IMG/VR virus record: IMGVR_UViG_3300045988_154997
Location: 32,001 to 96,000 of that record
Direction: 5' to 3' (one strand)
From: a virus
Lineage: Duplodnaviria; Heunggongvirae; Uroviricota; Caudoviricetes
Length of the DNA stretch: 64,000 nt
Under the pieces are notes generated by a model. That model saw only the letters and a list, made by a program, of their open reading frames with translations, did no database searches and was not told the DNA's origin. Both the position numbers and the translations under genes were made by a program. Below are positions 10,370 to 62,054 of this stretch, piece by piece; the stretch's first letter is position 1; every line of letters starts with the position of its first letter.

Positions 10370-11581
10370 GTGTCAATATTTTTAAGCGAAAAGGAAATGC
10401 AAAATTGGATAATTGACAAATTATCTGATCAAGATGGATTATATAATTCAATCATCAATATTGATAAATTAAATGAATTTAATCCGAAAAGACCCGAAGA
10501 GAAAAAAATTAAGGAGAGTTATCAGTTTTGTTTAAAGAACATAACATTGTTACATTTAATGACAGATGATGAGAATATCTCAGCAACAAAATCTGAGATA
10601 TTAAGACCTGATGTCGTTGCTTATTCAACAGAGAATGAATCCTTAGTTCTTATTGAGTTAAAAAATTTTTCAACACCAACAAGGGAAGCTGGAACTGAGC
10701 TAGTGGCATATGCTGCGGAACTAAAAAGTTACTTGTCATACTTGTCTGATGGAGATATTACCAATGTACTTATATCACCTGACTGGCCACCTTTGGTTAG
10801 ACACTTTATTTTTAATATGATCGTGTGGCAGAAGAAAAACTTTCTATGTTTAGAACCTTGCTATGATTTACAAGGTAACGTATCACTTACTCCTTTAGAT
10901 ATTAATAAATTAGTTATTGCGGAAGAAGCACTCAAGTTCTCATTTCGTCATCTTGGCGGGTTTCATATATGTTTGTATGATGATGAAATGTATAATCAAC
11001 CGACTTCCACTTCTCGTTTACATTCGAAATTGAATGTTATTAAAGCCAGCATGGCAAAAATGTCCTCAGACGGTGAAAAGACTAATAGCCATGGGTTTGC
11101 TATTTTATGTAGAAATTTGAACGAGAGAACTTTAGCACCATATACGATTACTCTAGTTAATGTTTCTGCGTTTTCTTCCATAGAGCGATACTTTCATTCG
11201 CCACAAATATCCAATGCTTCTCAACTCCCTAGAATAGGACAAAAAATTTATGACATTTACACTCATTACCAACCATCAGGTTTTGGGGCATCAATGTCGA
11301 AAATTTACAATTCTGGGAGGGCATATTTAGAAAAAATTAATTGCAAGCCGCGGATCGAGGTTATAGACACCTGGGATGTATTGCAAGTACATACACATGC
11401 GCCTTATATGGAAATGGTTCATATTGAAACGTGGGGAGTTTTTAAAGAAAAATTGATTGAAGGTCTAAATGAATGTTATGAGGATGAATATTACACACCT
11501 GATTTTAACGATGTAGATTTTTGCATGGTGTGTATTGAATCCTTAATTGACCAGAATTATGAATTTATAAAACTTTTTTGA
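10370..11581 (+). CDS. PD-(D/E)xK nuclease-like protein with unknown C-terminal domain
   Basis: N-terminal ILRPDVVAYSTENESLVLIELKNFS fits a D ... E-x-K restriction-endonuclease-fold signature; GTG start at 10370 with GGGAG RBS; 403 aa; about 33% GC. Confidence 0.5.
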   Translation: MSIFLSEKEMQNWIIDKLSDQDGLYNSIINIDKLNEFNPKRPEEKKIKESYQFCLKNITLLHLMTDDENISATKSEILRPDVVAYSTENESLVLIELKNFSTPTREAGTELVAYAAELKSYLSYLSDGDITNVLISPDWPPLVRHFIFNMIVWQKKNFLCLEPCYDLQGNVSLTPLDINKLVIAEEALKFSFRHLGGFHICLYDDEMYNQPTSTSRLHSKLNVIKASMAKMSSDGEKTNSHGFAILCRNLNERTLAPYTITLVNVSAFSSIERYFHSPQISNASQLPRIGQKIYDIYTHYQPSGFGASMSKIYNSGRAYLEKINCKPRIEVIDTWDVLQVHTHAPYMEMVHIETWGVFKEKLIEGLNECYEDEYYTPDFNDVDFCMVCIESLIDQNYEFIKLF

Positions 11582-21798: not shown

Positions 21799-21851
21799 CC
21801 TGCTTCCGTATAAATAATAATAAGTAACTTAGTATTTATATACAGAAGCAG
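21799..21851. promoter_or_regulatory. about 54-bp conserved intergenic element with terminal inverted repeats (CCTGCTTC ... GAAGCAGG); copy 1 of 2
   Basis: Near-identical copy at 55859-55912 upstream of terS; contains TAAGTAACTTA palindrome and TATATAC. Confidence 0.5.
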
Positions 21852-23879: not shown

Positions 23880-24239
23880 TTAACCTTTCTTCATCAACTC
23901 GCGTTTGATTTCATCGGTACGCATCGTGACGTCGGCAGCAGTGATCGCCTCGTTAAGTTTCACGATATCCTCGATTTCCTGCGGCGACTTCTCTGCCAGA
24001 TGGAAAATAGCAGCACGAATCACATCAGAGCGGGTGAATTTCTCGAAGCGAGGGATGAACTTCATCATCTCCAGCAGTTCGAAGTATTCGTCTTCCAGTG
24101 ACATTGTGCGGCTTTTAATTTTCTCTTTGCCACGAGTCGGGCGTCCCTGTGGTCTGACTGGTTGGCGCAAAGGAGTTGTGTTCTTAGCCGGTGCATCAGG
24201 CTCTTTGCGCTTTGCTAGGTCACCCATTTTCATGGACAT
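23880..24239 (-). CDS. small partition partner of ParA (ParG-like ribbon-helix-helix candidate)
   Basis: 119 aa, basic disordered N-terminus and C-terminal MSLEDEYFELLEMM ... RSDVIRAAIFHLAE; directly downstream of parA with a 1-nt overlap. Confidence 0.45.
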   Translation of the reverse strand: MSMKMGDLAKRKEPDAPAKNTTPLRQPVRPQGRPTRGKEKIKSRTMSLEDEYFELLEMMKFIPRFEKFTRSDVIRAAIFHLAEKSPQEIEDIVKLNEAITAADVTMRTDEIKRELMKKG

Positions 24240-24907
24240 TATTCTTCTTCCTCCAGACTCAACAGATAATCTACAAATTCTTCAAACTCGGCTTCCGCCT
24301 TTTTGTCGCGCTCGCTACCGGTCATTTCAAAGATAGAACGACCAGACTCTTCCGCATCATCGTAGACGTTGCGGTTATATAGATTGACAGGCGCAGACTC
24401 GATGCCAAACGTCTCGACAATCTCTTTAGCCGCCAGAATGCGAGACACTTGTGATGGCAAAGCCGGGCACTGGTTCATGACCGCGCGGACCTTCACTTTA
24501 TCGTTTACATTGCGAACATTGTCGATAATAGGATCGATGTCACGTAAAGATTTCAAATCACGACGCTTAGGACGCAGCGGGATAATGATAACGTCAGCCA
24601 TCAGCATCGCTTGTCGCTGAATTTCGGAGTCGAAGCCACCAGCATCTACCACTACATACTCAGCTCTACCCTGAAGCGATTTTAGGTGCTTAATGATGTC
24701 ATCCTGAACGTATGCAAAAGGAATCAGCTCAAGGTCTTCGTTCTGTCGACGGTCTTCACACCAGCTCGTTGTCGTGCGCTGAATATCTATATCGGTGATA
24801 TAAACCTTCTTCTTCTTTTTGACTTTCAGGCAAACGGCAATTTGCTGGGCAACGGTGGATTTGCCAGGCCCGCCCTTTGTGCCGCCAACCACAAAGATCT
24901 TGGTCAT
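24239..24907 (-). CDS. parA: ParA/MinD-family partition ATPase (small type Ib-like)
   Basis: Deviant Walker A GGTKGGPGKST near the N-terminus; 222 aa without an N-terminal HTH extension. Confidence 0.8.
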   Translation of the reverse strand: MTKIFVVGGTKGGPGKSTVAQQIAVCLKVKKKKKVYITDIDIQRTTTSWCEDRRQNEDLELIPFAYVQDDIIKHLKSLQGRAEYVVVDAGGFDSEIQRQAMLMADVIIIPLRPKRRDLKSLRDIDPIIDNVRNVNDKVKVRAVMNQCPALPSQVSRILAAKEIVETFGIESAPVNLYNRNVYDDAEESGRSIFEMTGSERDKKAEAEFEEFVDYLLSLEEEE

Positions 24908-53853: not shown

Positions 53854-55110
53854 CTATCGAGAACCACCAAGAATAACACGGTTTTTGACTGGATACCTAC
53901 GATGTACTGGATAGCCCAATGCGTCTGCACTATGCTCAATGCCACCTGTCTTATCCATATCTCGTGTTCCAGGCTTGTAGATGACTTTTTCCAGTGAATC
54001 AATCAAATGCTTGCACTTCGGATCGATATACAGCCGGATATCTCCAGATGCGGACATCAGCATTCGGTTAACAGCATTAACACGATCCGCAATTGGCGGG
54101 TGCTTTTTCGAATAATCGACACGTAAGAATCCCTTCTCTTTGAATATGTCTACGTCAGACTCCCCACGAGCATGTTGGCGATAAGCACCTGCCGGATCTG
54201 GAAATACCGTTACCTGTGATTTCCAGCGCCAGAAGCGTCTCTCAAGCTCATCACAAACTTCTGCCGTGTTAGAGGAAAAGAGCACCAATTCATCAATTGC
54301 CCATAGCTCACCATTTGGCTGAGGTTGCAAAATTACTGAAGACATCGGGTCAATGTTGAAGTCCTGCCCTACCCATATAGGCAACCGAGGGTTGAACTGA
54401 AGCGGTTTTACATGCACGTTACGATCGAACGGGTAGTAAACGCGCCCGGACATGTTCTCAAAGCTGGCCAGGTACTCCTGAGCGAACGATTTGGGGTCCA
54501 TATCGTTCTTAGCAGCTTCAATTTCCGCCGTAGGTACAAACGGAGAATCGGCAGTTACAAACTGCCAGCTCTTCCACTGTCCCTTTCTTTGCAGCTCTAC
54601 GTTCTGGCCTATAGTCCACAGTTTGTGAAATTCCGAGAAGCCTTTTGGCGTACCAATGATCAGTGCACCGCCGCGTGTCGATGAAAGAGTAGGTCGTAAC
54701 ACCTTGTACCAGGTGTCAGCCTTCATATCCTGAAATTCATCAAGCACTACAAAATGCAACGCTACGCCGCGCAGAGTGTCAGGCTTATCAGCACCTTTGA
54801 GGGCGATCTCCGAACCGTTCTTCAACACGATTGTCATCGTGGTGTCGTTCTTTTTCCTAACCCACTTACGAGGCAGAACTTCCTGTAGATCGTCCCATAA
54901 AATCTGGCGAGCCATCTGGTAAGTAGGAGCGACATACCAGACCCTTTGCTTTTTTTCCTTTGCCGCCGCACGAATAATAGTGGAGATCGACAACCGGGAT
55001 TTTCCCCAGCGTCGACCAGCACAAACAACTTTAAATCGATGCGGAGACTGGAAGACTTTCATCTGTCCAGAATGCAGTTGCACAAGACTGAGCGAGGACG
55101 GGATTGCCAT
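53854..55110 (-). CDS. terminase large subunit
   Basis: Walker A CAGRRWGKS and Walker B VVLDEF; 418 aa; ATGA overlap with the small subunit gene. Confidence 0.85.
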   Translation of the reverse strand: MAIPSSLSLVQLHSGQMKVFQSPHRFKVVCAGRRWGKSRLSISTIIRAAAKEKKQRVWYVAPTYQMARQILWDDLQEVLPRKWVRKKNDTTMTIVLKNGSEIALKGADKPDTLRGVALHFVVLDEFQDMKADTWYKVLRPTLSSTRGGALIIGTPKGFSEFHKLWTIGQNVELQRKGQWKSWQFVTADSPFVPTAEIEAAKNDMDPKSFAQEYLASFENMSGRVYYPFDRNVHVKPLQFNPRLPIWVGQDFNIDPMSSVILQPQPNGELWAIDELVLFSSNTAEVCDELERRFWRWKSQVTVFPDPAGAYRQHARGESDVDIFKEKGFLRVDYSKKHPPIADRVNAVNRMLMSASGDIRLYIDPKCKHLIDSLEKVIYKPGTRDMDKTGGIEHSADALGYPVHRRYPVKNRVILGGSR

Positions 55111-55742
55111 TATTCGTCCTCCCCTTCACTTCCATCATCTGTCGCATCAAATTCGCTTAGAGCTTCTTCTTCCAACGTCTCAAGCAATTCGTCATCGATG
55201 ATTTCAGGCTCGTCGTCTTCCTGACGTAATTTCGCCACCTGGGAAGGCGTAAGCTCACCAAATACCAGGTTCGGAATTTCTTCCTCGTCATTTTCCGCAT
55301 GATCCATGCCCAATGCTTTGGACGAAACTTCAAAGCATTTTGCAAGGGTATTACTGGCTCTCTGTAAGCTCTTGAGAGAATCCTCAATCGCCCCTAAAGG
55401 CTTACCCTCACGTTTGGCCGTAGTGACTTCGACCATCACCATCTGCCCCAACGCATACGCCCAGCCGTCATAACGTGTACGACGTTCTTCTATCTTTTCC
55501 GCACGGGCTTTAGCGCGAAGCTCTGCGTCAGATTTAAGAGACTCACGAACCATCTTCCCAACAGAGTCCGCGCCTTTCTCTAATCCTCGCTTTTTGAAAT
55601 GTCTGGAGAGTGTTTCACGACGAATGCCGTACTCTTCCTCCAGCTTTGAGAGTGTATATTCGCCTGACGTCCATTTGGCTTCAGCTTCGGCCCACTCCGC
55701 TGGTGTCAGGCGAGTTTTTACCTCGTCTTTTTCGACCGTCAT
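55110..55742 (-). CDS. terminase small subunit
   Basis: N-terminal HTH-like YTLSKLEEEYGIRRETLSRHFKKRG and acidic C-terminus; directly upstream of terL. Confidence 0.6.
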   Translation of the reverse strand: MTVEKDEVKTRLTPAEWAEAEAKWTSGEYTLSKLEEEYGIRRETLSRHFKKRGLEKGADSVGKMVRESLKSDAELRAKARAEKIEERRTRYDGWAYALGQMVMVEVTTAKREGKPLGAIEDSLKSLQRASNTLAKCFEVSSKALGMDHAENDEEEIPNLVFGELTPSQVAKLRQEDDEPEIIDDELLETLEEEALSEFDATDDGSEGEDE

Positions 55743-55858
55743 AGATCCCTCTAAAACACACAGAGCGCGTCCATGCGCTCTAAAACAACTTGTTTACTGC
55801 ATCTGCTAACCAACTTGTTTTCTGGGGTGTTTAATTAGGTCTGGCATGTCTTACGAAG

Positions 55859-55912
55859 CCTGCTTCCGTATATATTTAATAAGTTACTTATTATTTATAT
55901 ATACAGATGCAG
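55859..55912. promoter_or_regulatory. about 54-bp conserved intergenic element with terminal inverted repeats; copy 2 of 2, upstream of terS
   Basis: CCTGCTTCCGTATATATTTAATAAGTTACTTATTATTTATATATACAGATGCAGG versus the copy at 21799-21851. Confidence 0.5.
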
Positions 55913-55937: not shown

Positions 55938-56204
55938 TTACATCACCAGTAACTTCGCTTTGGCTCGACCTAAAGTGGTTAACCCAAGAGTTCGGCGGTG
56001 ATAGCGATTGTCACTGCGTTGGCGCGTATGCCCTTTCTCCACCAGCCCCTTTTTTATCAGAGCGCGAATTGAGAACTGGATACTTTGCTTGGTTGTCTTG
56101 TACGGCAAAACTTCAAGCAATTCGTCCAGGTCAAGTAGATGACCTCGCTCATAACCGAGATTGAGCGTTTTGATGATGTCCTTTTGTTTATCGGTTAACG
56201 TCAT
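55938..56204 (-). CDS. small winged-helix-like DNA-binding protein (88 aa)
   Basis: Composition and size only (IQFSIRALIKKGLVEKG). Confidence 0.35.
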   Translation of the reverse strand: MTLTDKQKDIIKTLNLGYERGHLLDLDELLEVLPYKTTKQSIQFSIRALIKKGLVEKGHTRQRSDNRYHRRTLGLTTLGRAKAKLLVM

Positions 56205-56213
56205 GGCAAATCC

Positions 56214-57104
56214 TTATGCCGGTAAAGCAATTTCTAACGGTTTATCCAAAGGTTGTTTGTCGAATGCCAGCAGTGGCAGCGTGTCAGGCAGTCGACGGCC
56301 AAAGTCAGGGTTTCGGTACACACCATACAACGGAGACGTAAAGCTCAGGTTGTGAATGTCCTTGAGCAGCTTCACAATGCTGGCCTCGTCCACCAGACTG
56401 TCGGCAATGTCCTGAATCGTCGTGCCACGATTCCGCCCAGCTTTTGCCAGGGAACTGTTCTTGTGGTAGTCCGCCACCAGATCACGCAGTGCACGGCGAC
56501 GACGAGACTCGCTCATTGCGAACAACTCTTTGACGATCGCCTCGTTATCACCCGGGTCGGAACGGAAATGGCGCTGGAATACACGCAGTGCACTTTCATA
56601 GCTCTTCGGTCGCTCAGGGCGGATGAACTTAAACCCTGCTTTCATGGCGAAGGGATTGTATTTGCTCATCGAGGACTGGATCTCAATGATTGGCCGGTCA
56701 TGCATCCTGCTAACCAGGTTAATCATTCGATAAGAGACGCCTACGCCACGATACTGAGTATCCACAACTGAGCGACTGATCACCGCAAAGTTGTTATTCA
56801 CGTACCGACCCCAGTACTGGTTAGCCACGGTGGTATTAGTGGTTGGTTTCAACTTAGGAAACATGCGGTGGCGAGGTGCCAACAGTAGTTTCGGGTAAGC
56901 CATAACCACGACGCCCACCAGACGGTCATCAAGTTCGCAGCGATAGTAAGTTGGCGCGAAAGGTTTGCCGTCTGTTTTGTAGTGAAGCGACTTAAGAGCG
57001 TGCCAGTCCTCTACAGTTCCCTTTGTAACAGTCATTCGCTCCAGAAAGTCCAGATGACGCGGAAACTCTTCAGGGCGGTAGCGTTTAATGATGATGTCCG
57101 TCAT
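56214..57104 (-). CDS. GNAT-like acetyltransferase-domain protein with C-terminal extension
   Basis: Acetyl-CoA-binding-like VVDTQYRGVGVSYRMINLV and NPFAMKAGFKF; ATGA overlap with the upstream gene. Confidence 0.45.
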   Translation of the reverse strand: MTDIIIKRYRPEEFPRHLDFLERMTVTKGTVEDWHALKSLHYKTDGKPFAPTYYRCELDDRLVGVVVMAYPKLLLAPRHRMFPKLKPTTNTTVANQYWGRYVNNNFAVISRSVVDTQYRGVGVSYRMINLVSRMHDRPIIEIQSSMSKYNPFAMKAGFKFIRPERPKSYESALRVFQRHFRSDPGDNEAIVKELFAMSESRRRRALRDLVADYHKNSSLAKAGRNRGTTIQDIADSLVDEASIVKLLKDIHNLSFTSPLYGVYRNPDFGRRLPDTLPLLAFDKQPLDKPLEIALPA

Positions 57105-57766
57105 GAATGGACCTCATCATGACTACCATTGTGATATTCCACCTTCACGCGTTCTTTGTAGTGCTTGGTGATCTGCATATCCGGGCGCAGCGCGTTCTTC
57201 AGGTCTTCGTGAGTCGTCGCCACCATTACCGTCGCACCAACCTTTCGAGCGGCACGCTGGAGGTTAGACGCCACAACCTGAGCGGTTACACGGTCGAGAA
57301 CAGCGCCGAACTCGTCAGCAGCCCACACTTTAGCGCCTGACTCAATCAGTTTGGCAATCTTGAGACGATATTTCTGACCGTCTGACATTTCAGAAGGCTT
57401 GCGAACAAACAGATATGCATCGTTCAGACCAGCCATAGATAACAACCCAAGCGCATCGCTGGTCGTTTTGCCCAACTGATCGATGACGTTAACCTCATTA
57501 TCGAAGGTAAAATCATCGATGGAGGCTACAGACAGCCCTTCATCCTTCATCTGTCGTTGCAACTCGCGCAGCACAACGGATTTGCCGGAACCGGATTGGC
57601 CGGTGATGTACACCACATCGCCCTGCTTCACTTCCAGCTCCAGATTGTCGTAAAGCGTCCACTCTTTTTCGTCCAGGCCAAGCCCGAACGACTCAGCGAT
57701 TTCCAACGTGCGCGTGGTTTTATTTACGCGTGTCTGAAACGATACGTTGATGATGTATTTGCTCAT
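57101..57766 (-). CDS. stand-alone ABC-type ATPase domain protein
   Basis: Walker A GQSGSGKS, ABC signature LSDGQKYRL, Walker B VWAADEF, H-loop ATTHE; 221 aa. Confidence 0.7.
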   Translation of the reverse strand: MSKYIINVSFQTRVNKTTRTLEIAESFGLGLDEKEWTLYDNLELEVKQGDVVYITGQSGSGKSVVLRELQRQMKDEGLSVASIDDFTFDNEVNVIDQLGKTTSDALGLLSMAGLNDAYLFVRKPSEMSDGQKYRLKIAKLIESGAKVWAADEFGAVLDRVTAQVVASNLQRAARKVGATVMVATTHEDLKNALRPDMQITKHYKERVKVEYHNGSHDEVHS

Positions 57767-58464
57767 GCAGCCATCTCCCCGGAAGAGATCTTCTCCGCAT
57801 ATGCCACAAATGCGTCTACCCCGCTTTCTCCCGTCATTTCTTCCATGTGGGCAAGCAAATCACCAACAACAATGGCAGAGCCAGCAGGAAGCGTTTTAAA
57901 GCCCAATACGTCGACAACACGTACTTCTTCCGCTGCAACTTCACGACTGATCTCGGTGTGTTCATCCTTCTGTCGTTTAGTTTCTTCGCCAAGATCGATA
58001 ACTAGCGAGTCGGTGTCCATTTCTTCTGTCATGCTACCAACGAGAACATTCAACTCACGCTCTTCAAAGCCGAAAACCTCGATATCGTCCAGAACAAGCG
58101 ACTCAAGCTCTTTCTGTAGCTTAATTGCATCGTAATCAATGCTGGCAAGTCGGTTATCTTCAAGGCGCTTCGCACGAACCTCGTCATCACTGAGATCATC
58201 GCGAACAATAACCGGTACGCGCTCAAGTCCAGCAAAAATTGCAGCCTCACGGCGGCCGTGGCCAGTAATAATTACGTCGTTCTTATCGACCGTAATTGGC
58301 TGGTCAAATCCGCGCTTTTTAATGGCTGCGGCTAGATCTCGGATCTGCTGTTCATCATGCTTTTTGGCATTCATCTCATAGGGAATAAGATCTGCCGGGT
58401 CGCGATATACGATTTCAAACTTTTTGGTCATTACATACGCTCCTTGTAGTAGTCGACCAGCCAC
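57763..58464 (-). CDS. ParB N-terminal (ParB/Srx nuclease-like) domain protein
   Basis: ITVDKNDVIITGHGRREAAIFAGLERVPVIV; acidic C-terminal half. Confidence 0.65.
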   Translation of the reverse strand: MAGRLLQGAYVMTKKFEIVYRDPADLIPYEMNAKKHDEQQIRDLAAAIKKRGFDQPITVDKNDVIITGHGRREAAIFAGLERVPVIVRDDLSDDEVRAKRLEDNRLASIDYDAIKLQKELESLVLDDIEVFGFEERELNVLVGSMTEEMDTDSLVIDLGEETKRQKDEHTEISREVAAEEVRVVDVLGFKTLPAGSAIVVGDLLAHMEEMTGESGVDAFVAYAEKISSGEMAA

Positions 58465-59129
58465 ACCAGAGCCTCACCAGCGTTCTCCATTTCATTACCG
58501 GTGTTAATAGCCTGCTCTTTGATGATGTTTTTTATGGTTTCTGCAACACGATCTGACGCATCGAAAGTTACTTTGAAGCGCATGGTCTGATGTTCCGCAC
58601 CCACACGTTCGGTTTTCTCTCGTTTGTCGGTATCGACAGGCTCATCACTACCACGAGACAACGCCTCCAGTGCTTCAAGGTCGATTGCCGCCTCTTTTGC
58701 TAAAACCATCGAGATTTCGTCGTCATACGGGGCGATTTCAGACAGTTGATAGTCAAGTTCTGACTGAATTTCTTCAATGAAGCGTTGCAATGCGATTTGG
58801 TCGTCTTCACCGTATCGCTCGTTGTCCACCAGTGACATCTGTTTAGCTACGACATCGCTAATTTTGCCCACAGAAAGCACCGGAACCGTTGAAATTCCTT
58901 GCTCAATAGCAGCACGCCAGCGATGTTCGCCGCCGAGGATTTCAAAAAATCCATCTTCAAGTTCACGAGCCAAAATTGGCTTAAAAAAGCCCAATTTTTC
59001 GATAGAACCTTTCAGTTTTTCAAAATTCTGCGCACCAACCGAATTGGTGTTCCAGGTATTCGGGCGAAGGTTGGCAACATCAACCTGCAAAATCGTGATT
59101 TTTACATCCATTTTATTGCTACAATCCAC
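58431..59129 (-). CDS. ParB N-terminal (ParB/Srx nuclease-like) domain protein, second copy
   Basis: FFEILGGEHRWRAAIEQGISTVPVL; overlaps the downstream ParB-like gene by 34 nt. Confidence 0.65.
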   Translation of the reverse strand: MDCSNKMDVKITILQVDVANLRPNTWNTNSVGAQNFEKLKGSIEKLGFFKPILARELEDGFFEILGGEHRWRAAIEQGISTVPVLSVGKISDVVAKQMSLVDNERYGEDDQIALQRFIEEIQSELDYQLSEIAPYDDEISMVLAKEAAIDLEALEALSRGSDEPVDTDKREKTERVGAEHQTMRFKVTFDASDRVAETIKNIIKEQAINTGNEMENAGEALVWLVDYYKERM

Positions 59130-59154
59130 TAAGTAATCACTTACTTATTATAAT
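59127..59154. promoter_or_regulatory. recurrent motif ACTAAGTAATCACTTACTTATTATAAT in the divergent region between the ParB-like operon and the helicase
   Basis: Shares TAAGTAATCACTTAC with the element at 3408-3427. Confidence 0.45.
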
Positions 59155-59193: not shown

Positions 59194-60753
59194 ATGACTG
59201 TTCGGATTGTATCTAACGCAGTTAATGCGCTTATTTCTGGCGCAGATGACAAGGTAAAGCAAATGGTGCAACAGATGTTGAGCTACGAAGTCGAGACTGG
59301 CGACTGGAAGGGCACAAGCACGATGTTCAACTGGAGTAAAAACTCGTTCCCTGCTGGCTTTGCCAAGCCTGTAGCGGCGAACTTGAACAAGGCGGGCATC
59401 AAATGTGTTCATATCCGCAAAGACAAAGCCCCGGCGCTTGGTAAACCAAATCCTGCGGTTAACCCATTCCCATACAATCCTGATTATGCGTATCAGGATC
59501 AGACTGTGGAAACACTGGTTCGAGAGGGAATGATGATTGCGCAGATCGCTACTGGTGGCGGGAAATCTAACGTTGCCTGCAAAGCAGCTGCACGTATCGG
59601 TCGAATGACATTATTTTTAACAACCCGCTCTGTTCTGATGTTTCAAATGGCCGAAAACTTCCAGAGATCCATCGACTACCGCGCCGAAAATGGCGAACCG
59701 TGGTTAAAAGACCAAAAGGTTGGAGTCATTGGCTCGGGTGAGTTCCAGGTATCACGACATATCAACGTCGCTACAGTTCAAACTCTTGCAAGTTTCCTCG
59801 AAGAACCACCACGCGATGCAACACCAGATAAGAAAAGCTACCACCTCAAACGTCGGGAGTTGGTGAAACGCTTCCTTTCAAGTGTCTCTCTTCTTATTCT
59901 GGAAGAGGCGCATGAGTCTTCAGGCTCAAATTTCTATGACATCGCCAGATTATGTGTGAACGCAGACTATCGTCTGGCGCTTACAGCCACGCCGTTCATG
60001 AAGGATTCGACGGAAGCCAACATGCGCCTGATGGCGGTGGCCGGGCGAATTGAAATTAAAGTCACAGAAAAGTACCTGATTGATCGAGGCATTCTGGCAA
60101 AGCCGTACTTCCTTTATCATAAAGTTGCCTACAAGCCAGACGAGGCCAGAATCAAGGCCGAACTTGCCAACAAACACCTCAATTTTAGAGTTGGTATGAG
60201 CACCGCCTACCAAAAGGCTTATCAGTTGGGGATCGTGTATAATTTGGGACGTAACGAGGCCATTGTTCGCGAAGCATTGCTCTATAAGCAACATTCTCTC
60301 AATTGTATGACTCTGGTTCGTCTTAAACGCCACGGGCAAATCCTGATGGAAATGATGAAAGAGTCCGGCCTTAGAGTTGACTTCATCTATGGGGAATCTA
60401 ACCAGGCGACAAGGCAAGCAAAGCTGAACAGTTTAGCGTCTGGAGAAATAGATGTTTTAATAGGCTCGACTATTCTGGATGTCGGTGTTGATGTGCCAAG
60501 CGTTGGTGCGGTCATTCTTGCTGGTGGTGGGAAAGCAGAAGTTGAAATGAGGCAGCGTGTCGGTCGTGGCTTACGAGCCAAAAAAAATCAGGCAAACGTG
60601 TGTTTTATCACTGATTTCATTGACATTAGCAACAAATACCTGTTGTCTCACTCTTATGAGCGAAAACACATCATCGACACCACACCTGGCTTTGCAGAAG
60701 GTGTATTGCCTATTGATGGAGCATTCGATTTTGGAGTTCTGAAACGAGATTAG
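59194..60753 (+). CDS. superfamily 2 (DEAD/DEAH-type) helicase
   Basis: Motif I ATGGGKS, motif II ILEEAHE, motif III LTATP, motif VI QRVGRGLR. Confidence 0.8.
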   Translation: MTVRIVSNAVNALISGADDKVKQMVQQMLSYEVETGDWKGTSTMFNWSKNSFPAGFAKPVAANLNKAGIKCVHIRKDKAPALGKPNPAVNPFPYNPDYAYQDQTVETLVREGMMIAQIATGGGKSNVACKAAARIGRMTLFLTTRSVLMFQMAENFQRSIDYRAENGEPWLKDQKVGVIGSGEFQVSRHINVATVQTLASFLEEPPRDATPDKKSYHLKRRELVKRFLSSVSLLILEEAHESSGSNFYDIARLCVNADYRLALTATPFMKDSTEANMRLMAVAGRIEIKVTEKYLIDRGILAKPYFLYHKVAYKPDEARIKAELANKHLNFRVGMSTAYQKAYQLGIVYNLGRNEAIVREALLYKQHSLNCMTLVRLKRHGQILMEMMKESGLRVDFIYGESNQATRQAKLNSLASGEIDVLIGSTILDVGVDVPSVGAVILAGGGKAEVEMRQRVGRGLRAKKNQANVCFITDFIDISNKYLLSHSYERKHIIDTTPGFAEGVLPIDGAFDFGVLKRD

Positions 60754-61529: not shown

Positions 61530-62054
61530 ATGACAACCAAAGATATTACCTACGGTATCCAAGCTGAACTCTGGCCGCGAGATTACACTAACGTTGAAAA
61601 ACTACTGATGTTCTGGCGCAGAGAACAAATTCCTGTAAGGGTCACTCTCGAAGATGGCCAGGCGTTTTGCATGTACGTTTATGGCCTCATGCCATCTCGT
61701 AACAAAGTTGACCTTTGCCCAGCCCCTTTTGACAAAGAAAATCGTATAAGGCTCCCACTTGAACGCATTAGTACAATTGAATCAGGTGTGGTTGACAGTA
61801 TCGCTCACGATTTCAAAGGTCGACTAACAGTTCACCCTGATTATGTCGATAATCGGCCATCACGCCGCGATTTTTTTGCAATTTGCAACCAAGCCTACAA
61901 AGCAAACAAATCTATAAGGGTGTACATGGCGGATGGCCGTGAAATTGAGGGGGTGTCAGCAGGCGCAGATGCTTGTCAGGTTACACTACGTGTCGAGAAC
62001 GGTAGAAAAATAGTTGTTTTGTTCGATTGGGTTGAACGAATTTTGCCTTTTTGA
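61530..62054 (+). CDS. hypothetical protein (174 aa)
   Basis: ATG at 61530 just after the lipoprotein stop; the longer track ORF overlaps the upstream gene. Confidence 0.45.
   Translation: MTTKDITYGIQAELWPRDYTNVEKLLMFWRREQIPVRVTLEDGQAFCMYVYGLMPSRNKVDLCPAPFDKENRIRLPLERISTIESGVVDSIAHDFKGRLTVHPDYVDNRPSRRDFFAICNQAYKANKSIRVYMADGREIEGVSAGADACQVTLRVENGRKIVVLFDWVERILPF

Follow-up and report, generated by a model that had tools for sequence, protein, structure and literature searches.

The stretch under study, a 64,000-nucleotide (nt) window of the IMG/VR virus record IMGVR_UViG_3300045988_154997, harbors at positions 56,214–59,129 a cassette of four coupled minus-strand genes encoding two ParB-like proteins (ParB1 and ParB2), a stand-alone ABC ATPase and a GNAT-fold acyltransferase; the cassette and its flanking genes are described here in window coordinates. 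By homology the ATPase and the GNAT protein are the split form of a widespread ABC-GNAT fusion enzyme, and the cassette belongs to an ABC-GNAT family for which DNA modification has been predicted computationally. We tentatively favor the reading that the cassette is a ParB-assisted, ATP-dependent acyltransferase, which would mark the phage's own DNA and would be expressed beside the packaging genes.

Cassette layout and the split ABC-GNAT enzyme

All four minus-strand open reading frames are present, and neighboring ones are coupled by stop/start overlaps reading TAATG, ATGA and ATGA, in agreement with the overlapping codons described in the first-pass annotation of this DNA. At the ParB1/ParB2 junction, GTAATGACC, the TAA of ParB1 and the ATG of ParB2 (58431) have one base in common, and the ParB2/ABC and ABC/GNAT junctions, TGCATGAGC and TTCATGACG, are both of the ATGA type. 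Between the GNAT stop codon and the next gene (55938–56204) lies a 9-base gap that includes AAGGA. The genes of the cassette are the following:

58431..59111, minus strand: ParB1, whose open reading frame reaches back to a GTG at 59129
57763..58431, minus strand: ParB2, whose start ATG shares 1 nt with the ParB1 stop
57101..57766, minus strand: ABC ATPase, the ATPase half of the split ABC-GNAT enzyme
56214..57104, minus strand: GNAT-fold acyltransferase, the transferase half of the split enzyme
55938..56204, minus strand: small winged-helix-like protein of 88 aa, conserved fifth gene of the cassette

A 100%-identical plasmid in RefSeq has the same genes annotated, with ATG 59111 as the ParB1 start. 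Each protein is matched near full length by one dedicated PHROG (723, 930, 293 and 886 in the order ParB1, ParB2, ABC, GNAT; 900 for the small gene), and NCBIfam gave no specific family match for the cassette proteins. The window is an SSU5-type phage-plasmid of Escherichia coli, since the region shares 99.5% identity with Escherichia phage Cyrano and 85% with Salmonella phage SSU5 and is carried by 757 plasmids in PLSDB (292 Klebsiella, 218 Escherichia, 62 Yersinia, 49 Salmonella; also Enterobacter and others).

The profile and structure searches that the first-pass annotation had proposed were run for the cassette proteins and uphold its assignments of two tandem ParB N-terminal-domain proteins, a stand-alone ABC ATPase with all motifs and a GNAT-like protein. 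The ABC protein matches ABC_tran above the Pfam cut-off (5.8e-13) as well as phrog_293, and represents a bare transporter-type nucleotide-binding domain with neither a coiled coil nor a membrane partner. E. coli and archaeal homologues alike keep its Walker A motif, SDGQK signature, Walker B (DE), D-loop and H-loop without variation. The GNAT protein comprises the GNAT fold in about residues 1–168, followed by a family-specific helical C-terminal domain of ~130 aa (residues 169–296). Its Pfam acetyltransferase match is weak (E = 0.037) and phrog_886 is its dedicated family; the fold and the acyl-CoA-binding loop (CoA, coenzyme A) are conserved.

Phage Mu Mom is a GNAT-fold enzyme that acyl-modifies DNA adenine. 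When the GNAT model was compared to viral structures, phage Mom was the second-best match, followed by many proteins of ~550 aa named 'endonuclease-like'; a BFVD protein of 214 aa named aspartate 1-decarboxylase was matched as well. In the PDB, the top matches are GNATs acting on protein N-termini, ribosomal proteins and small molecules. Membership of the Mom family by sequence is ruled out by an hhalign probability of 0.2%, only the GNAT-like fold being in common. In contrast to the cassette, Mom works without an ATPase and without ParB, and the Com/Dam control of Mom is absent here.

A profile search with the GNAT protein yielded 897 relatives, many of which are proteins of 440–560 aa with an N-terminal ABC domain and a C-terminal GNAT domain of this type; the W-x-NPD motif at the C-terminus of the GNAT protein is also present in fused relatives. 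One fusion, P0185, bears the JGI name 'ABC-type ATPase with predicted acetyltransferase domain' and has more than 2098 homologues, which were found in Bathyarchaeia, Nitrososphaeria, Methanocella and Firmicutes. Upon tblastn of P0185 against the near-identical phage Cyrano, the ABC and GNAT gene pair covers 96% of the query at 36% identity, and the domain order in the fusions (ABC, then GNAT) is the gene order in the window. Because the distant relatives are single fused polypeptides, the two window proteins are by homology one enzyme, the split form of the fusion.

Additional domains are seen in some ABC-GNAT relatives, with P0165, P0176, P0204 and P0154 as representative proteins: a LAGLIDADG intein within the ABC domain, a family-B DNA polymerase (PolB) N-terminal to ABC-GNAT, or a TFIIB repeat at the C-terminus, these being either true fusions or gene-call merges. 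The PolB-ABC-GNAT arrangement was rejected as proof of fusion because single representatives may be such merges.

A GNAT coupled to an ABC ATPase was predicted by Iyer, Zhang, Burroughs and Aravind in 2013 to acylate a DNA base, as summarized by Iyer et al. 2021 with Tenacibaculum phage pT24 as an example (PMC7824862). The corresponding family, COG2401, is named 'ABC-type ATPase fused to a predicted acetyltransferase domain' and has MK0520 as its prototype. Homology to pT24 is established at the ABC level, its ABC protein BPT24_038 giving matches to P0185 (8e-14) and to the family's ABC hidden Markov model (HMM; 3e-27). Both catalytic domains of the COG2401 system are homologous to the window pair, both occur in viruses, and the COG2401 label is used in the Cyrano annotation and in JGI names. 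The window enzyme differs in being split into two translationally coupled genes, in the two ParB paralogues preceding and the winged-helix gene following it, and in the extra ~130-aa C-terminal domain of its GNAT protein. Three traits are particular to the SSU5 lineage, namely an enzyme divided over two coupled genes, a ParB duplication and the conserved winged-helix gene. In the literature searched, no experimental work on the ABC-GNAT family and nothing on the function of the cassette was found, and the nickievirus papers are silent on DNA modification.

The two ParB paralogues

Both ParB proteins match Pfam ParB_N above the cut-off (3e-13 for ParB1, 1.5e-8 for ParB2), and their best family matches are phrog_723 (2e-79) and phrog_930 (1e-112), respectively. 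For ParB2 the next matches are phrog_620 (2e-39) and then phrog_498 (5e-32), the latter being the ParB domain found fused to methyltransferases in phages; ParB2 also matches the ParB part of MTase_II in PADLOC at 3e-17. Alignment depicts ParB1 and ParB2 as paralogues along their full length with invariant residues P17, N21, G61, R64 and N97. Both consist of a ParB/Srx N-domain (about residues 1–100), an acidic linker of ~70 residues and a C-terminal domain of ~50 residues. The GGEHRWRAA motif of ParB1 has a more degenerate counterpart in ParB2, TGHGRREAA. The PDB matches of ParB1 are the N-domains of Spo0J, ParB and Noc, and the invariant N21 aligns to the motif-1 glutamine of Spo0J (PRQPR), which is therefore replaced by asparagine in both window proteins. 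The GxxR motif and the asparagine of the ParB N-terminal nucleotide-binding domain are kept in both.

With respect to the central helix-turn-helix (HTH) of partition ParBs, profile matches end at about residue 105, and the AlphaFold2 model of ParB1 has pLDDT values below 50 past residue 99; this model was calculated from an alignment of close homologues only (85–88% identity) and is reliable for residues 1–98 only. The profile of the C-terminal domain gave no significant match in the PDB, the best being a helix-hairpin-helix segment of Topo V with an E-value of 0.28, so that neither a ribbon-helix-helix nor a helix-hairpin-helix fold is supported for this domain.

ParB-like proteins of this kind have been linked to DNA-modifying enzymes in two systems. 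A phage ParB-like protein without DNA-binding domain is needed in vivo and in vitro for the action of a thymine dioxygenase on double-stranded DNA, and the genes seen most often beside 5mYOX loci include those for ParBs (27%) and terminases (19%) (O'Toole et al., bioRxiv 2025, PNAS 2026, PMC13229309). As compared by its described features, ParB176 of the 5mYOX176/ParB176 pair resembles the window proteins: it is a short phage ParB with N-domain, linker and small C-terminal domain, without obvious HTH and with the motif-1 glutamine replaced by asparagine. In both cases the ParB gene is paired with a gene for an enzyme of the DNA-modifying type, often near the terminase. The differences are that the window partner is an ABC-GNAT pair rather than an iron/2-oxoglutarate dioxygenase and that two ParB paralogues are found instead of one. 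In the Dpd system of 7-deazaguanine DNA modification, preQ0 is inserted into DNA only if the ParB-like DpdB is active as an ATPase (PMC12839542), and DpdA/DpdB is similar in pairing a ParB-like NTPase with a base-modifying enzyme that acts on duplex DNA. DpdA is, however, a transglycosylase and not an acyltransferase, and the Dpd genes reside in a cellular defense island resembling restriction-modification systems, whereas the window genes form a viral module. Canonical ParABS and ParB-SMC loading systems have in common with the cassette a ParB N-domain with GxxR and asparagine and a ParB beside an ABC-class ATPase, but the cassette lacks a ParA neighbor, a detectable HTH and a coiled-coil SMC protein.

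Gene neighborhood in the window and in relatives

The cassette is positioned between a helicase gene, with the replication-side genes, on one flank and the genes for a TerS-like protein, TerL and the portal on the other. The flanking features are:

59194..60753, plus strand: SF2 (UvsW/XPB-like) helicase, divergent from ParB1
55110..55742, minus strand: TerS-like DNA-binding protein (phrog_867, 2e-100), overlapping TerL
53854–55110: TerL, matching Terminase_6N and phrog_2
59134..59151: palindrome TAATCACTTACTTATTAT, lying in the divergent promoter region (82 bp) that separates ParB1 from the helicase gene
55876..55894: perfect copy TAATAAGTTACTTATTA of this palindrome, with a larger inverted repeat flanking it, in the spacer (195 bp) that separates the winged-helix gene from TerS
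21817–21835 and 10722–10739: further copies of the TAATAAGTTACTTATTAT-like palindrome, the one at 21817 intergenic
55761..55782, minus strand: terminator-like GC hairpin with T-run, ending 19 nt before the TerS start

In relatives of 41–55% identity (a prophage in a 3.3-Mb contig, L001; Ectothiorhodospira; a marine Tara contig) the gene order is kept: the helicase, divergent, then ParB, ParB, ABC, zero to three small inserted genes, GNAT, winged helix, TerS, TerL and portal. The divergent helicase occupies the same position in all distant relatives examined. The winged-helix gene of the relatives is 27–45% identical, its start overlapping the GNAT stop in L001 and L002 and lying 3 nt past it in L005. 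Hence the downstream winged-helix gene and the divergent plus-strand SF2 helicase, which the first-pass annotation had reported for the window, are both lasting companions of the cassette. The winged-helix protein matches phrog_900 (2e-45) and, weakly, LexA_DNA_bind, Lrs14/Sta1 and CARF-wHTH; it may be either a DNA-recognition subunit or a regulator. An early-region gene of the PF04447 dATP/dGTP pyrophosphohydrolase family is found in the marine relative with the same cassette (L005 1573–1998, L006 189–614). Enzymes of this type go along with 2-aminoadenine genomes, a hint that this marine phage may edit its nucleotide pool. A short way downstream of the window's helicase (61530–62054, plus strand), a full-profile match to Flag1_repress (FljA, phase-1 flagellin repressor; Pfam E = 1.5e-84) is observed, therefore the phage-plasmid encodes a flagellin-expression repressor.

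The GNAT gene is also found in siphophages of ~110 kb, for example Pseudomonas nickie, Rhizobium RHEph10 and Stenotrophomonas and Xanthomonas phages, and all contexts opened for ABC-GNAT relatives are viral or proviral. In Heliorestis and Desulfofarcimen prophages the fused form adjoins TerL and portal with Amidoligase_2 and a gamma-glutamyl cyclotransferase-like protein (GGACT) between them. In archaeal proviruses it follows directly after TerL and is not accompanied by ParB; in one case it follows structural genes with no TerL called. A ParB-like gene precedes the fused form in Gordonia phages BiggityBass (gp1-gp2) and Jace (gp85-gp86), Leptospira LE4 and Arthrobacter EastWest. The fused form further adjoins the PolIII alpha gene of a large phage and follows the tail fibers of the Mu-like Burkholderia phage phiE255, while the ABC gene of pT24 adjoins a helicase gene.

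In Streptococcus Javan511 the ParB-like gene is followed by an ABC-only gene (225 aa) without significant GNAT match. This ParB-like gene, Javan511_0034 (L015 4486–5004; 172 aa), is annotated as 'DNA modification methylase', yet it contains only ParB-N (custom HMM, 7e-26); it overlaps the ABC ATPase gene upstream of the terminase, and the same layout is found in many S. pyogenes prophages.

A total of 80 IMG/VR loci was retrieved by ABC alignment and scanned with custom HMMs, the sample being biased toward relatives of the window proteins. A ParB-N gene is located directly upstream in 47 of the 80 loci, and TerL lies at most 6 kb away in 58, the TerL counts being lower bounds because the custom models span few TerL families. 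Two ParBs with a split GNAT are present in 33 loci, with TerL 1–2 kb downstream in all 32 complete ones; in 14 loci a single ParB gene comes right before the enzyme, which is mostly of the fused type, and 20 are ParB-less with TerL directly upstream, in 15 cases within 300 nt. Together with the archaeal proviruses, this distribution indicates that the linkage to the terminase is ancient and extends to archaeal viruses. No mention of a terminase linkage reaching archaeal proviruses was found in the accessible literature, in which the primary prediction of 2013 is represented by its 2021 summary. The split form of the fusion enzyme, the winged-helix gene as a conserved fifth member and this ancient linkage go beyond what the first-pass annotation had described.

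Around the constant core, the neighboring enzymes vary. A formyltransferase is found twice, after the ABC-GNAT gene in both cases, as gp3 of BiggityBass (L017 1823–2473; Formyl_trans_N PF00551, 7e-10) and as gp30 of phiE255; Jace gp87 (L021 5092–5517), directly after the ParB/ABC-GNAT pair, is annotated as aspartate decarboxylase, and Firmicute prophages have the amidoligase and GGACT proteins as neighbors. BiggityBass gp3 is annotated as 'tRNA-methyltransferase' despite its Formyl_trans_N match. We infer from this variability of group-transfer or tailoring-type enzymes a pattern like that of DNA hypermodification clusters.

With respect to regulatory sequences, TAATAAGTTACTTATTAT-like sites number four in the window and give six strand-matches, as two sites are palindromic and match both strands, versus 0.04 expected. 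The half-site ATAAGT/ACTTAT is found again in the helicase-ParB spacers of relatives. The 21817 copy lies in the spacer of two hypothetical genes by the DnaB-like helicase/primase region. The recurrence suggests an operator or promoter element common across the genome. The search for parS-like repeats, another check proposed at first pass, returned this palindrome with its four sites as sole candidate; it could be parS-like, and a promoter or operator role is equally possible. A hairpin with T-run upstream of TerS was also found by eye in L001, L002 and L005. Because this element precedes TerS and is kept in three relatives, either the genes from ParB to the winged-helix protein probably form their own transcription unit, or antitermination controls the late operon. 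The position of the hairpin resembles the lambda tR'-type antitermination set-up for a late operon.

Predicted function and alternative explanations

In the predicted mechanism, the ABC and GNAT subunits would constitute an ATP-gated clamp-transferase with duplex DNA as its substrate. ATP-driven head-to-head dimerization of the ABC domains would clamp or open the double strand, and the GNAT active site would transfer the acyl or aminoacyl moiety of a CoA thioester to an exocyclic amine of a flipped-out base. ParB1 and ParB2, as a homo- or heterodimeric clamp, may load, hold or activate the enzyme on duplex DNA, in the manner of DpdB or of the ParB-like proteins that activate phage thymine dioxygenases. 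Sequence recognition or control of expression would be provided by the winged-helix protein, and marking of virion DNA would be secured by timing and by the position next to the packaging genes; the expected gain is virion DNA resistant to host restriction.

DNA modification is favored because of the fusion (Rosetta-stone) evidence from the 897 GNAT relatives and the more than 2098 fusion-family matches, because the GNAT fold and CoA loop are conserved with phage Mom as second-best viral structural match, and because the ParB linkage recurs in unrelated phages as well as in 47 of the 80 IMG/VR loci. It is also favored by the resemblance of ParB2 to the ParB domain of phage ParB-DNA-methyltransferase fusions (phrog_498) and by the replacement of the motif-1 glutamine by the invariant N21, as in ParB-like activators. 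The same direction is indicated by neighbors resembling hypermodification tailoring enzymes (formyltransferase, decarboxylase, amidoligase with GGACT), by other DNA-linked contexts (PolIII alpha neighbor, PolB- or TFIIB-attached proteins, intein in the ABC domain) and by the literature, namely the prediction summarized by Iyer et al., the ParB-dependent dioxygenase (PMC13229309) and DpdB (PMC12839542).

Several observations weigh against this assignment. The literature found reports no modified base for any phage carrying the module, and the SSU5-type cassette itself is without tailoring enzyme. In structure, the GNAT protein is no closer to Mom than to those generic GNATs of the PDB that have proteins or small molecules as substrates, and its alignment has no sequence-profile relationship to Mu Mom, as described above. 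The C-terminal part of the ParBs escaped modeling, so a DNA-binding domain may be present. Finally, the tightest and most ancient linkage is that to TerL (58 of 80 loci; adjacent in archaeal proviruses), which fits packaging equally well.

The first-pass annotation had left the choice between DNA modification or defense and packaging undecided. Comparative evidence and literature now favor modification, while defense finds no support because no PADLOC system, no restriction partner and only viral or proviral contexts among those opened were found. In PADLOC no defense system was matched; there were generic ATPase and helicase matches (mad3, PbeA) and the ParB part of MTase_II, and none for the GNAT protein.

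Packaging without any base modification appears rather unlikely as an explanation. ParB1 and ParB2 near the packaging start, together with an SMC/Rad50-like ABC clamp, would present concatemers to TerS and TerL, and the GNAT protein would have a regulatory role, e.g. by acetylating the terminase, the portal or a DNA-binding protein. The TerL distances given above, including those of the 15 ParB-less archaeal-type loci within 300 nt and the 32 complete SSU5-type loci, are in line with this. So are the order ParB, ABC-GNAT, formyltransferase and terminase at the extreme left genome end of BiggityBass, which has no annotated TerS, and the spacer between the winged-helix gene and TerS, which is the start of the deposited linear genomes of SSU5 and Cyrano. 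However, as the first-pass annotation had stated, the locus is not a standard packaging module: the window and its relatives have their own TerS-like gene, which precedes TerL, and the terminator-like hairpin separates it from the cassette. Furthermore, members of the family reside far from the terminase (by PolIII alpha, after the phiE255 tail fibers, by the helicase in pT24), formyltransferase, decarboxylase and amidoligase neighbors make no sense for a pure packaging factor, and DNA-modification genes themselves often adjoin terminases, as in 19% of 5mYOX loci.

A bolder variant, to which we assign a low probability, joins both ideas. The ABC-GNAT enzyme would then be an ancient terminase-linked part of bacterial and archaeal tailed viruses that performs packaging-coupled acylation; the heteromeric ParB1/ParB2 clamp of SSU5 would load at the flanking palindromes, and only encapsidated genomes would receive the new N-acyl (possibly aminoacyl) base.

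Similarly improbable is an acetyltransferase for proteins or small molecules, serving host takeover or anti-defense like the phiKMV Rac GNAT on RNA polymerase, with the ParB/Srx proteins as nucleoside triphosphate-dependent cofactors. Srx-fold proteins can act on proteins, as sulfiredoxin does, which speaks for this explanation, and Iyer et al. in 2009 reportedly linked amidoligase and GGACT to peptide tagging. The top PDB matches of the GNAT protein also belong to such enzymes, and some GNATs of phages are known to have host proteins as their substrates (PMC7824862). Contrary to this, the ParBs are closest to the DNA-acting ParB, Noc and Spo0J and to the ParB domains of DNA methyltransferases, and the cassette is lastingly linked to genes of DNA transactions (terminase, helicase, polymerases), with a conserved winged-helix partner and, in relatives, attached PolB or TFIIB domains as well as an intein.

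A second segregation or condensation system of the plasmid prophage, in which ParB clamps act with the SMC-like ABC ATPase, would suit two ParB-N proteins with GxxR and conserved asparagine, an operon flanked by palindromes and an element replicating as a plasmid, but it is highly improbable. In agreement with the first-pass statement that this is no canonical partition locus, ParA is not adjacent and a ParA-type ATPase (24239–24907) with its own small partner forms a separate cassette at 23880–24907; moreover, the module is found in an integrated prophage (L001), in apparently lytic ~110-kb phages not known as plasmids (nickie, RHEph10) and, ParB-less, in archaeal proviruses, and the ATPase is without coiled coil and GNAT-fused in relatives, with no HTH detected in the ParBs. 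TmcA/NAT10 is an ATPase joined to a GNAT that makes N4-acetylcytidine (ac4C), and an analogous RNA or tRNA acetyltransferase, sharing the domain logic of an NTPase and a GNAT on nucleic acid, has just as little probability given the different ATPase class (ABC versus RecD-like), the missing tRNA-binding domain and the DNA-related partners (ParB, winged helix) and neighbors.

To our knowledge, an ABC ATPase driving a GNAT is an enzyme class without characterized representative. Because the E. coli version consists of separately expressible subunits with two ParB partners, it would lend itself well to studying the family as a whole, archaeal viral forms included. If DNA acylation by the cassette is true, the SSU5-type phage-plasmids, 757 of which are found in PLSDB, carry an uncharacterized chemical DNA mark. 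Such a mark would have consequences for how these elements evade restriction, for their host range and for how they spread horizontally, and it may disturb sequencing-based methylation calls. If the acylation is coupled to packaging, a hitherto unknown DNA modification would be present in hundreds of phage-plasmids of Klebsiella, Escherichia, Salmonella and Yersinia. In either case, the activation of DNA-modifying enzymes by ParB-like proteins, a recent finding, would have a wider reach.

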